This document shows, piece by piece, positions 25,002 to 25,590 of a stretch of 35,688 nucleotides of DNA. Both the position numbers and the translations under genes were made by a program. Position 1 is the first letter of the stretch. Each line of letters begins with the position of its first letter. The notes under the pieces are model-generated. The model made no database searches. It was given only the letters and a program-made list of their open reading frames with translations, and was not told the DNA's origin. This stretch comes from a virus (Duplodnaviria > Heunggongvirae > Uroviricota > Caudoviricetes): the IMG/VR virus record IMGVR_UViG_2740892230_000015. One strand, 5' to 3'.

Positions 25002-25424
25002 ATGTCATTCTTTTCTACGTTAAAAACAGCTTTGTCTTTGAAGGAGAAACTTGCTGCTACTGGTGTTCTTGTTCTGATTTGCGCACTTGTTGGTGCTGGG
25101 TTTGCGTGGGAACGTCATCAGCTAAAGCAAGCCATGGAGAAAATTGGCAGTCTTGATCAGGCTGTTAAGGAACGTGATAAGTCAATAATGGATCTTAACC
25201 AGACCATTGAGACGATGAACAAAGCAGAGCAACATTTTCACAGCCAGGAAGTGAAAAATGAATCAGAACAAGCCAAGTATGCTGACAGGCAAATGGAACG
25301 AAAAGCTGAAGTTCAGAAACAACTTGTTGCGGCGGGTAATGTTCGCCAGCGTATTCCTGCTGACACTCAGCGGTTGCTCCGGGAGTCGATCAGCGAATTT
25401 AACGCCGACGCCGACAAAGGTTAA
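25002..25424 (+). CDS. i-spanin-like protein (N-terminal TM helix plus coiled coil)
   Basis: ATG at 25002 with AGGAGG RBS. Hydrophobic segment LAATGVLVLICALVGAGFAW followed by a charged coiled-coil region, as in Rz-type proteins. Confidence 0.45.
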   Translation: MSFFSTLKTALSLKEKLAATGVLVLICALVGAGFAWERHQLKQAMEKIGSLDQAVKERDKSIMDLNQTIETMNKAEQHFHSQEVKNESEQAKYADRQMERKAEVQKQLVAAGNVRQRIPADTQRLLRESISEFNADADKG

Positions 25425-25590
25425 CCACCCTGCCCCAAAAAGTGCATTTATGTGCAGGATGCCAGAGTTTAGCAGTGAATATTTTGATGATCTGCCAGCG
25501 TATATCCTCGATACAGAAACGATGCTGATGGGGATTAACAGGAAGAATCGCAACGTTAATGATTACAACCGCGCTATCAGCGGTAACTAA
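25339..25590 (+). CDS. lipoprotein (o-spanin-like), overlapping the previous gene out of frame
   Basis: Signal peptide with lipobox MFASVFLLTLSGC; Pro-rich mature N-terminus (LTPTPTKVNHPAP) and a second Cys. Starts inside the 25002..25424 gene in the +1 frame. Confidence 0.45.
   Translation: MFASVFLLTLSGCSGSRSANLTPTPTKVNHPAPKSAFMCRMPEFSSEYFDDLPAYILDTETMLMGINRKNRNVNDYNRAISGN

Follow-up and report, generated by a model that had tools for sequence, protein, structure and literature searches.

A predicted two-component spanin encoded by the overlapping genes ppfA and mlp of a P1-type plasmid prophage

The ppfA-mlp locus and its operon

The window (the whole stretch of 35,688 nucleotides that was analysed, IMG/VR record IMGVR_UViG_2740892230_000015) shows about 99% nucleotide identity to P1, P7, SJ46 and RCS47. 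By P1 naming, positions 25002-25424 are ppfA and positions 25258-25590 are mlp. It is the same locus as ppfA-mlp of P1 and P7 (P1_gp064 / P1_gp063; 98.8-99.6% nucleotide identity), and the gene order upfC-upfB-ppfA-mlp-upfA-oriR-repA is identical in all three. Each protein carries a single substitution against reference P1 (I45M in PpfA, W23L in Mlp). There is thus no substantive difference from P1 at ppfA-mlp; the window departs from it only outside the locus, where its first 4.36 kb have no P1 counterpart. The following features were located:

23784-23799, strand not assigned: C1 repressor operator (equivalent of P1 Odmt/Op68) in the divergent uhr / upfC intergenic region, from the annotation of the P1 record
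23830-23848, + strand: weak site resembling an Lpa-type late promoter, 33 nt before upfC (PWM score 11.7; AAATAACCT-aagt-TAAAAT)
23881-24165, + strand: upfC, PAAR spike-tip baseplate protein, first gene of the operon (NCBIfam T6SS_PAAR_dom, 4.1e-9; P1 annotation)
24117-24962, + strand: upfB, baseplate 'tripod' protein on the spike tip (phrog_1559, 3.2e-138; P1 annotation)
24964-24982, + strand: degenerate box resembling a late promoter, in the spacer between upfB and ppfA and 20 nt ahead of the ppfA ATG (PWM score 7.7; AAAGGACTT-catt-GATAAT)
25002-25424, + strand: ppfA, predicted i-spanin, 140 aa (ATG 25002 to TAA 25424; phrog_89)
25258-25424, + strand: 167-nt overlap coding in two frames (ppfA in frame 0, mlp in frame +1), from codon-position divergence
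25258-25590, + strand: mlp, predicted o-spanin lipoprotein precursor, 110 aa (ATG 25258 to TAA 25590, +1 frame)
25602-25994, + strand: upfA, last gene of the operon (phrog_1453, function unknown)
26009-26029, + strand: intrinsic-terminator-like hairpin and T-run, 15 nt past the upfA stop (consensus match only)

The C1 operator (TATTTATTAGAGCAAT) is conserved in the aligned relatives and belongs to the context, not to the spanin genes. UpfC has been assigned to the spike tip by cryo-EM and HHpred (PMC12810830, PMC9024508) and UpfB to the tripod by cryo-EM (PMC12810830). The non-essential upfA is less constant: its position in the relatives is taken by a Gp49-family gene, alone or before a 129-aa ORF, and in L095 no gene is called there. 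The hairpin behind upfA, a consensus match only, may close the operon before oriR.

The original prediction had placed the pair between the dmt operon and oriR and outside any lysis cassette, and both statements hold. The operon lies between the divergent uhr-hrdC-dmt operon and oriR/repA (repA at 26313), the direct neighbours of the pair are upfB and upfA, and in P1 lyz-lydD-lydE and lydA-lydB are 43 kb and 32 kb away, respectively. Bednarek 2022 likewise assigns the P1 spanin genes to another, unlinked operon. The location only seems odd because the lysis genes of P1 are spread across several late operons, of which this one begins with two baseplate genes.

Since the pair is co-transcribed with upfC and upfB, it might be argued that PpfA and Mlp are accessories of the membrane-piercing tail tip that act at infection and not at lysis; operon and late kinetics are indeed common with the spike-tip and tripod proteins. 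Cryo-EM nonetheless explains the baseplate without PpfA or Mlp (PMC12810830), neither protein is mentioned in the available main text and supplement of the virion proteome paper (PMC9024508), and P2 too embeds lysis genes among head and tail genes. We therefore regard such a role as hardly credible.

Two proteins from overlapping frames

The candidates were judged by the spanin criteria of Summer 2007 and Kongari 2018, among which are a same-strand overlap of the genes, a largely helical periplasmic domain in the i-spanin and a periplasmic Cys. A transmembrane plus coiled-coil protein had been proposed for 25002-25424, and ppfA has exactly these coordinates, behind a Shine-Dalgarno sequence AGGAGG (24991-24996). 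Its sole strongly hydrophobic stretch (aa 17-36, nt 25050-25109, LAATGVLVLICALVGAGFAW, Kyte-Doolittle 2.35) is preceded by the basic residues K8, K14 and K16 and followed by a hydrophilic C-terminal part of 104 aa. PpfA is predicted to be a type II inner-membrane protein with one N-terminal transmembrane domain and a periplasmic C-terminal domain. According to the AF2 model (mean pLDDT 69, moderate confidence), helices at 13-110 and 120-137 are separated by a loop at 111-119, which makes the modelled periplasmic domain largely helical with a break, as in i-spanins. This domain is free of Cys; the single Cys of PpfA lies within the transmembrane domain.

PpfA matches phrog_89 'Rz-like spanin' at 1.2e-25 over nearly its full length, and P2 LysB is a member of the same PHROG. 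Coiled-coil composition can inflate profile matches of PpfA. Direct comparison ties the protein to neither LysB nor Rz: the LysB model TIGR03495 gives 19 bits (E = 0.0013; cutoff 92.75), and the periplasmic parts of PpfA and LysB reach only z = 0.9 in a shuffle test. A profile-profile tie to LysB was set aside as marginal (hhalign, 50% probability, E = 1.6e-4, 44 columns in the transmembrane and juxtamembrane region only). Direct homology between PpfA and LysB thus appears weak, despite their common PHROG. A Pfam search of the pair gave no match (LPAM_1 was found for Mlp, only below threshold), nor did PDB sequence searches.

The second claim, a +1-frame lipoprotein with a lipobox that runs to 25590, was borne out as well. 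The mlp ORF (25258-25590) follows a Shine-Dalgarno sequence AGGAAG (25246-25251) and encodes an h-region VMFASVFLLTL, a lipobox L-S-G-C (25366-25377) and the predicted lipidation site Cys40 (25375-25377). Table S1 of Kongari 2018 lists a LipoP cleavage at residue 39. The residue at +2 is Ser, and therefore there is no Asp inner-membrane retention signal. The lipobox is kept as LSGC, LNGC, LSAC or LNAC in eight lineages. The mature protein (71 aa) starts with CSGSRSANLTPTPTKVNHPAP; Pro residues had been expected here and are present, but the segment is only moderately rich in them, with Pro at 4 and Ser/Thr at 6 of 21 positions. Mlp also has a periplasmic Cys, Cys66 (25453-25455), that is invariant in all aligned relatives. 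The AF2 model of Mlp is of low confidence (pLDDT 54.5) and contains a C-terminal helix, predicted likewise with low confidence. The C-termini of the pair are conserved (RIPADTQRLLRESISEFNA and INRKNRNVNxYNR).

Mlp is similar in sequence to P2 LysC. BLASTP aligns the two with 37% identity over 68 aa (E = 1e-7), and the matches of Mlp to PHROG lysis families (phrog_30284, 2.6e-77; phrog_456, 2.8e-5) are reciprocal with LysC, which belongs to phrog_456 and in turn matches phrog_30284. The Smith-Waterman score of mature Mlp against mature LysC is 52 (23.6 +/- 4.4 for shuffled sequences; z = 6.4), a value that 0 of 2000 shuffles reach, and the alignment includes common TPTP and Cys-x-Met-Pro (C-x-MP) motifs. 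Since Mlp misses the cutoff of NF038368 (14.7 bits against 27) and yet shows homology by BLASTP, PHROG and shuffling, the comparison supports a significant distant homology of mature Mlp to LysC, and not membership of the equivalog.

Counted from ATG 25258 the signal sequence is 39 aa, which is unusually long, as is also flagged in Kongari 2018. TTG 25327 aligns with Met1 of P2 LysC and as a start would yield a textbook signal peptide of 17 aa. It was rejected as the only start: five of the seven relatives have ATG here, but L096 has AGG and P1 has TTG, and it is the upstream ATG, behind a strong Shine-Dalgarno sequence (AGGAGG or AGGAAG), that occurs in 7/7. Judged from these alignments, both starts may be used.

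With 167 nt shared in frame +1, the pair falls in the 'overlapped' class and its genes overlap on the same strand. The Rz/Rz1-type overlapped spanin architecture that was originally proposed is thus found, in agreement with the published assignment of P1 ppfA/mlp. The +1 ORF, the lipobox and the mature domain are kept in seven lineages whose PpfA is 59-64% identical to that of the window, and since they are kept across lineages the overlapping pair is more than a product of chance. It is also intact in an eighth lineage, L097 (PpfA 31% identical). Codon-position divergence indicates purifying selection on both frames in the seven lineages, down to about 60% identity: third positions of ppfA diverge by 0.42 in the non-overlapping part, by 0.22 where the h-region and lipobox of Mlp are encoded, and by 0.09 over the N-terminus of mature Mlp. 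The first 69 nt of the overlap (Mlp aa 1-23) are unconstrained, with a divergence of 0.39.

These values bear on the suggestion that the pair is a lysis-timing regulator or, alternatively, a decayed and non-functional remnant of a spanin. The regulator goes back to earlier descriptions of P2 lysB/lysC as 'lysis regulatory proteins', a view inherited by the note on P1 mlp. The GenBank notes of P2 and P1 are worded accordingly (P1 mlp is 'possibly involved in regulation of lysis'), ppfA and mlp are non-essential in CRISPRi plaque assays, and the holin and antiholin set of P1 is unusually complex. Strong purifying selection on the two frames across lineages nevertheless argues against decay, and the 'timing' phenotype of Rz-type genes is now explained in the spanin literature by failed outer-membrane disruption. 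Overall, we consider either variant improbable in comparison to a functional spanin pair.

An exhaustive profile search for distant relatives returned only 36 matches. Relatives in conventional lysis cassettes were sought among them and discarded as an option: the sole distant full-length match placed on a contig (P0102, in L097) belongs to a P1-type element, a placement that leaves out P0108 (no place in viral_contigs) and P0119, and the remainder are fragments or coiled-coil noise. Scans of genome_contigs and viral_contigs yielded essentially P1-identical loci.

Late transcription and candidate promoters

Published P1vir RNA-seq data, which we re-analysed, show that ppfA rises from a logFC of 5.6 at 10 min to 11.2 at 30 min, and mlp from 4.1 to 10.5. 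This resembles lyz (6.1 to 11.3), while flanking early genes are already at 8.6-9.4 at 10 min. The kinetics of upfA are late, like those of the remaining operon. As a whole the operon differs from the early class (p = 3.8e-5) and shows no significant difference from late genes.

These kinetics also weigh on a different function that was suggested initially, namely an envelope-acting exclusion system. It was considered here as a module for superinfection exclusion or lysogenic conversion, in which a prophage-expressed lipoprotein and its membrane partner block incoming phages or alter the envelope. Phage lipoproteins with exclusion roles are known, such as Llp of T5. Because such a module would act in the lysogen, a site next to plasmid maintenance genes would suit it, and the pair does adjoin oriR, repA and par; moreover, the P1 record has two predicted sigma-70 promoters upstream of ppfA, and both genes are dispensable for plaque formation. 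Against this, expression in P1vir infection is late-lytic and not constitutive or early, and a sigma-70 scan found no promoter-like site on the + strand between 23600 and 25534 (upstream of upfC, ppfA and the mlp start). The operon begins with virion baseplate genes, none of its five proteins matches PADLOC-DB at E <= 0.01, and mature Mlp shares homology with LysC, an o-spanin, while its partner has the architecture of an i-spanin. Exclusion is thereby very improbable, and late expression is as expected of a two-component spanin.

In the window only weak sites (PWM scores 11.7 and 7.7) were found where a canonical late promoter before the operon was sought; the nine annotated late promoters of P1 score 19.3-23.9 on the same scale. 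A site comparable to the one upstream of upfC occurs at the equivalent position in four of the seven relatives, where it is among the top 2-5 positions per locus. A role of 23830-23848 as late promoter of upfC would be an inference only.

The P1 record has no late promoter annotated in the 39-nt upfB-ppfA spacer. The homologous spacer site scores higher in the relatives (19.7 in L006, 18.8 in L095, 15.3 in L094, 11.3 in L093 and L096, 10.0 in L004). There the box and the -10 are conserved while spacer and leader vary, and the strong matches lie 37 nt upstream of ppfA. A near-consensus site (AAGTGACTT-N4-GAGAAT) is present in P1-like elements of Cronobacter and Klebsiella; it is degenerate in P1. 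It is conceivable, though rather doubtful, that across the P1 family this spacer provides the pair with an Lpa-dependent late promoter of its own and that the basic pre-signal extension of 23 residues in Mlp is deliberate. If true, the promoter would dose outer-membrane disruption independently of the upstream baseplate genes, and the extension (conserved, though unconstrained in sequence) could slow export or tune translation, as opposed to being an artefact of annotation.

The predicted spanin pair and its counterparts in P2 and lambda

Two-component spanins complete lysis by breaking the outer membrane. The possibility that ppfA/mlp forms a second set of this kind does not stand up, because a whole-genome scan of P1 reveals no other spanin candidate. 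In the 94.8-kb reference Mlp is the only credible lipoprotein, and the same scan gave no unimolecular spanin (Mlp has no C-terminal hydrophobic segment). The proposed comparison with the phage's own lysis genes leads to the same result: lyz-lydD-lydE, lydA-lydB and lydC of P1 contain no spanin. The 'putative lipoprotein' plp was considered as a second lipoprotein or o-spanin and rejected, as it lacks a signal peptide, is rich in Cys and lies antisense to tRNA genes, which it overlaps.

Summarizing, ppfA/mlp is very probably the two-component spanin of this P1-type plasmid prophage. The support consists of sequence features, selection on both frames, homology between Mlp and LysC, the lack of another spanin in P1 and late transcription. 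As a P1 spanin pair ppfA/mlp is already known. Table S1 of Kongari et al. 2018 lists the P1 genes as overlapped i-spanin and o-spanin ('OIS'/'OOS') in a 'P1' family of their own, and Bednarek et al. 2022 describe an overlapped two-component spanin whose identification they credit to Summer et al. 2007. Having been catalogued as the only predicted two-component spanin of P1, the pair is real but ordinary.

We infer the following arrangement in vivo, from membrane topology and complex formation to the disulfide and the fusion activity. PpfA, the i-spanin, would be held in the inner membrane by a single N-terminal helix and extend a mostly alpha-helical stalk of ~100 residues into the periplasm. 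Mlp, the o-spanin, would receive its lipid on Cys40 after export, lose its signal sequence to signal peptidase II and, with Ser at +2, end up in the inner leaflet of the outer membrane, where it may dimerise through its single invariant periplasmic cysteine, Cys66. The periplasmic C-terminal parts of both proteins are expected to bind each other and to bridge the envelope through the peptidoglycan mesh. Transcribed late together with upfC and upfB, the complex would stay inert as long as the murein is intact. Once LydA/LydB/Lyz, the holin and SAR-endolysin system, has degraded it, the freed PpfA-Mlp complexes would collapse and fuse inner and outer membranes, completing lysis. According to Bednarek 2022 lysis in shaken laboratory cultures does not require spanins. 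Neither gene appears among the single-gene knockouts listed in the available part of the supplement of PMC9024508.

With this pair, both a classic model phage and the widespread, resistance-gene-carrying phage-plasmids of the P1 type are predicted to carry out the last step of lysis. Its significance beyond correct annotation is small, and nothing here will surprise a specialist. Useful for work on the P1 spanin are the late kinetics, the operon shared with baseplate genes and the late-promoter footprint before ppfA in relatives. Annotation itself is uneven: several GenBank records label the pair Rz/Rz1 or 'Rz-like spanin', many still read 'possible periplasmic function' or 'hypothetical', automatic gene callers shorten the overlapped lipoprotein to a tail of 45-52 aa, and the labels of i- and o-spanin have been exchanged in one recent paper.

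Compared with lambda Rz/Rz1, the likeness lies in the combination of a type II helical inner-membrane protein with a small, Pro-rich outer-membrane lipoprotein in the +1 frame. Rz1 is fully embedded in Rz, whereas ppfA/mlp is overlapped, and mature Rz1 counts 41 aa including the lipidated Cys against 71 aa for Mlp. Sequence homology to Rz/Rz1 is not detectable by BLASTP (E = 0.26 and 0.005, the latter for the signal peptide only), by shuffling (z 0.9-1.8) or by a PF03245 match, and the PHROGs differ (phrog_13 / phrog_3198). The 'Rz/Rz1' labels in GenBank are, on this comparison, best read as functional analogies.

The closer counterpart is LysB/LysC of P2, the prototype of the 'overlapped' class, in which the o-spanin gene likewise begins in frame +1 within the 3' portion of the i-spanin gene and extends beyond the stop of the latter. 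The LysB family has two conserved Cys, whereas PpfA has none in its periplasmic part, and homology between the C-terminal domains of PpfA and LysB is not demonstrable. Dimensions are nonetheless similar, with an overlap of 146 nt in P2 against 167 nt in ppfA/mlp and proteins of 141 and 96 aa (LysB/LysC) against 140 and 110 aa (PpfA/Mlp). In P2 the pair comes immediately after holin and endolysin genes (Y, K, lysA) and in P1 it has no linkage to lyz and lydAB, but both pairs are found in late operons among virion genes.

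The overlapping gene pair and its assignment in P1

The original prediction described a TM protein whose gene contains, in the +1 frame, the start of a lipoprotein with a lipobox; this is borne out exactly by the sequence (ORFs, TM segment and lipobox):

25002-25424, + strand: ppfA, predicted i-spanin gene, 140 aa, SD AGGAGG upstream at 24991-24996
25258-25590, + strand: mlp, predicted o-spanin gene, +1 frame relative to ppfA

The mlp gene starts 256 nt inside ppfA, overlaps it over 167 nt and extends 166 nt beyond its stop. PpfA has only one hydrophobic segment (aa 17-36) and a C-terminal part of 104 residues, 36% of them charged; its AlphaFold2 model (pLDDT 69, 12-sequence alignment) comprises a helix (13-110), a loop (111-119) and a second helix (120-137). 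Mlp combines a hydrophobic h-region with the lipobox L-S-G-C (Cys40, Ser at +2), a Pro/Thr-rich mature N-terminus (CSGSRSANLTPTPTKVNHPAP) and a single additional Cys at position 66. The low-confidence AlphaFold2 model of Mlp (pLDDT 54.5) has a signal helix, a disordered part (38-72) and a C-terminal helix (86-108).

Window 4361-35532 forms a single colinear block with 98.6% identity to P1 84579-53412, and the 801 bases around the pair are 98.8-99.6% identical to P1, P7, SJ46, RCS47 and JL22. Reference P1 annotates ppfA as P1_gp064 ('possible periplasmic function') and mlp as P1_gp063 ('membrane lipoprotein precursor', with the RefSeq product 'Rz-like spanin'); the window's proteins differ from these by one substitution each (PpfA I45M, Mlp W23L). 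Other GenBank records already use the names Rz and Rz1, and several P1-like records leave both genes 'hypothetical'. Table S1 of Kongari et al. (2018) enters P1 as an overlapped two-component spanin, with gp064 as i-spanin (104 periplasmic residues, without periplasmic Cys) and gp063 as o-spanin (71 aa when mature, LipoP cleavage at residue 39, a single periplasmic Cys, 'Too long signal sequence'). Bednarek et al. (2022; PMC9025707) describe the P1 spanins as a prediction credited to Summer et al. (2007), without experimental verification. The labels in their Introduction (ppfA as o-spanin, mlp as i-spanin) are reversed, because PpfA carries the TM helix and Mlp the lipobox.

Given the P1 locus and the published listing, our finding is therefore a rediscovery: the spanin reading of ppfA/mlp is already known for P1, and the Rz/Rz1-type overlapped architecture that was proposed agrees with the assignment of Kongari et al. 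(2018). What we add is the selection on both frames, the distinction between solid homology for the o-spanin and weak homology for the i-spanin, a re-analysis of late kinetics and a candidate late promoter in relatives.

The first part of the window (1-4360) has no counterpart in reference P1. Its segment 1-2857 has matches in the early region of prophages of the lambdoid or P22-like kind (ERF recombinase, 1520-2155, - strand; Kil; anti-RecBCD; Ea22-like) and is separated from 2868-4360 by a run of 10 N (2858-2867, a scaffold gap). Parts of 1-4360 are common to some 98-kb P1-like plasmids; the region is either two contigs joined by scaffolding or a real mosaic.

Selection on both reading frames

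We compared the pair with its counterparts in six diverged phage-plasmids of the P1-like group (Salmonella, Cronobacter, Klebsiella and metagenomic sources; PpfA 59-64% identical) and in a much more distant P1-type element, L097, whose PpfA-like protein has 151 aa and is 31% identical. All of these, L097 included, retain the +1 ORF, with LSGC, LNGC, LSAC or LNAC as its lipobox (LNGC being a known o-spanin variant; Kongari 2018), and the motifs AFMC-x-MP, DDLP-x-Y and INRKN-x-N(V/I)N.

Divergence is highest at ppfA codon position 3 in the ppfA-only region (0.42 vs 0.19 and 0.15) and at mlp position 3 in the mlp-only tail (0.38 vs 0.13 and 0.09). Where the genes overlap, ppfA position 3 diverges less, at 0.22 across the h-region and lipobox of Mlp and at 0.09 across its mature N-terminus. 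Both proteins are therefore under purifying selection. The first 23 annotated Mlp codons are free of protein-level constraint (0.39 divergence at ppfA position 3, 0.51 identity for Mlp). An ATG with a strong upstream SD is present at the annotated mlp start in 7/7 lineages, and the internal start matching Met1 of P2 LysC is ATG in only 5/7 (TTG in P1, AGG in the relative L096). The long basic N-extension of Mlp is probably translated, its sequence being free to vary.

Gene callers give just a 45-52-aa non-overlapping mlp tail in relatives (L004-L006, L093, L094, L096), and many database Mlp homologs are truncated fragments of 62-65 aa that start within the mature domain.

Late expression and candidate promoters

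The pair constitutes genes three and four of a five-gene unit (upfC, upfB, ppfA, mlp, upfA) that is divergent from the C1-controlled uhr-hrdC-dmt operon. Cryo-EM places both UpfC, the PAAR spike tip, and UpfB, a 'tripod' upon it, in the P1 baseplate; P2 likewise has its lysis genes between head-completion and tail genes. The slot 3' of mlp varies:

25602-25994, + strand: upfA in P1, phrog_1453, function unknown
26009-26029: terminator-like hairpin at which the unit ends, 15 nt after upfA, just ahead of oriR
L004 6600-6953, L006 6600-6959, L093 3597-3962, L094 3601-3966: post-mlp slot in relatives

A Gp49-family gene (PF13876) replaces upfA in the Salmonella relatives, the Cronobacter element has a Gp49-family gene and then a 129-aa ORF, and in the Klebsiella element (L095) the slot holds no called gene.

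Log fold change in published P1vir infection RNA-seq (PMC8201110 Table S1, wild type) at 10 and 30 min
upfC: 4.86; 10.63
upfB: 4.12; 11.07
ppfA: 5.57; 11.25
mlp: 4.15; 10.53
upfA: 5.21; 11.24

At 10 min the operon mean is 4.78 +/- 0.64, against 8.21 +/- 1.35 for the early class (n=20 C1-controlled genes; p = 3.8e-5) and 4.18 +/- 1.13 for the late class (n=35 genes behind annotated late promoters; no significant difference). Adjoining genes are early (uhr, hrdC and dmt 8.6-9.4; repA, parA and parB 7.4-9.5). Given that the operon behaves like the late class and unlike the early class, ppfA/mlp is a late function, as expected of a spanin.

Promoters were scored with a weight matrix trained on nine late promoters annotated in P1 (AAGTGACTT-N4-TAnnnT), which themselves score 19.3-23.9; outside this set just two sites in the complete P1 scan score 17-18.

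Late-promoter-like sites and their scores
L006 5964-5982, before ppfA: AAGTGACTT-cccg-GAGAAT; 19.7
L095 2964-2982, before ppfA: AAGTGACTT-accg-GAGAAT; 18.8
L094 2964-2982, before ppfA: AAATGACCT-gtca-CACAAT; 15.3
L093 and L096, before ppfA: AAATGACCT-ggcg-GAAAAT; 11.3
L004, before ppfA: ATATGACCT-gtca-GAAAAT; 10.0
Window 24964-24982 and P1, before ppfA: AAAGGACTT-catt-GATAAT; 7.7, degenerate
L097, before ppfA: AAAGCACTT-tgcc-CATAAT; 5.1
Window 23830-23848, about 30-34 nt upstream of upfC: 11.7, weak
Window 12142-12160 (+) = P1 76780-76798 (-), unannotated, inside the gene 7/gene 24 tail-gene block: 17.7
P1 50726-50744 (-), unannotated, repL start, opposite strand: 17.1

The sites of L006, L095 and L094 before ppfA are near-consensus. 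From site start to the ppfA ATG the distance is exactly 37 nt in L004, L006 and L093-L096, 38 nt in the window and 43 nt in L097. The box and -10 are conserved and the N4 spacer and leader variable, a phylogenetic footprint. This pattern points to a putative Lpa-type late promoter before ppfA, weakest in the window itself, which we regard as a lead and not a demonstration; in this region the P1 record has predicted sigma-70 promoters only, with no late promoter annotated before ppfA.

A C1 operator in the uhr/upfC divergent region (window 23784-23799; P1 Odmt/Op68) is conserved in 7/8 lineages, L097 having it only in part. Since the weak pre-upfC site is some 30 nt downstream of this operator, the operator might affect both divergent units.

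Comparison with known spanins

The pair had also been suggested to be a second spanin set or an envelope-acting exclusion system. In a six-frame scan of the assembled complete P1 reference, Mlp is the only lipoprotein signal in a credible gene, the rest being antisense ORFs within known genes; the same scan shows no unimolecular spanin (lipoprotein with C-terminal TMD), and the other P1 lysis loci hold endolysin, holins and antiholins only. PpfA/Mlp is therefore no second set but the sole spanin candidate in P1. Exclusion is likewise unsupported: the operon proteins match no PADLOC defence model.

The P1 'putative lipoprotein' plp (window 19091-19468, + strand) was rejected as a lipoprotein, being without signal peptide and overlapping tRNA genes. 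With its TTG start, many Cys and a tRNA-Thr gene on the opposite strand beneath it, plp looks like a dubious gene call; the RNA-seq reads that map to it probably originate in the tRNA region.

By analogy with the published lambda and T4 spanins, PpfA would insert in the inner membrane and Mlp would be lipidated, sorted to the outer membrane and dimerized via Cys66. Their periplasmic parts (175 residues together) would suffice to span the periplasm through the murein, and after LydA triggering and murein removal by the SAR-endolysin Lyz the complexes would collapse and fuse the two membranes. We found no direct functional test of ppfA or mlp in the literature searched; CRISPRi plaque assays scored both as non-essential, consistent with the conditional phenotype that mutants in spanin genes are known to have.

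Searched exhaustively with an HMM, 1.84 billion representatives yield only 36 matches; the sole contig-placed distant full-length match lies in a P1-type element (two others are unplaced), and as far as traced the family is restricted to P1-like elements. Pfam gives nothing significant for either protein, and the best NCBIfam matches are the P2 models phage_LysB and P2_Rz1, both far under cutoff. In PHROGs, PpfA matches phrog_89 (1.2e-25), shared with P2 LysB (5.8e-61), and Mlp matches phrog_30284 (2.6e-77) and more weakly phrog_456, the PHROG of P2 LysC, which matches phrog_30284 reciprocally; all three are annotated 'Rz-like spanin'.

Mlp aligns directly to LysC (37% identity, 68 residues, E = 1e-7), and the mature domains alone, without their signal peptides, still score 52, where shuffles give 23.6 +/- 4.4 (z = 6.4, 0/2000). 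PpfA and LysB show no pairwise significance (shuffle z = 0.9) and a marginal profile-to-profile match (50% probability over 44 columns). Lambda Rz and Rz1 belong to different PHROGs and show no homology to PpfA or Mlp in direct comparison. Judged from these sequence comparisons, homology of Mlp to LysC is therefore solid, if distant, PpfA would be a LysB analogue whose homology to LysB is plausible but unproven, and the GenBank 'Rz/Rz1' labels are functional analogies.
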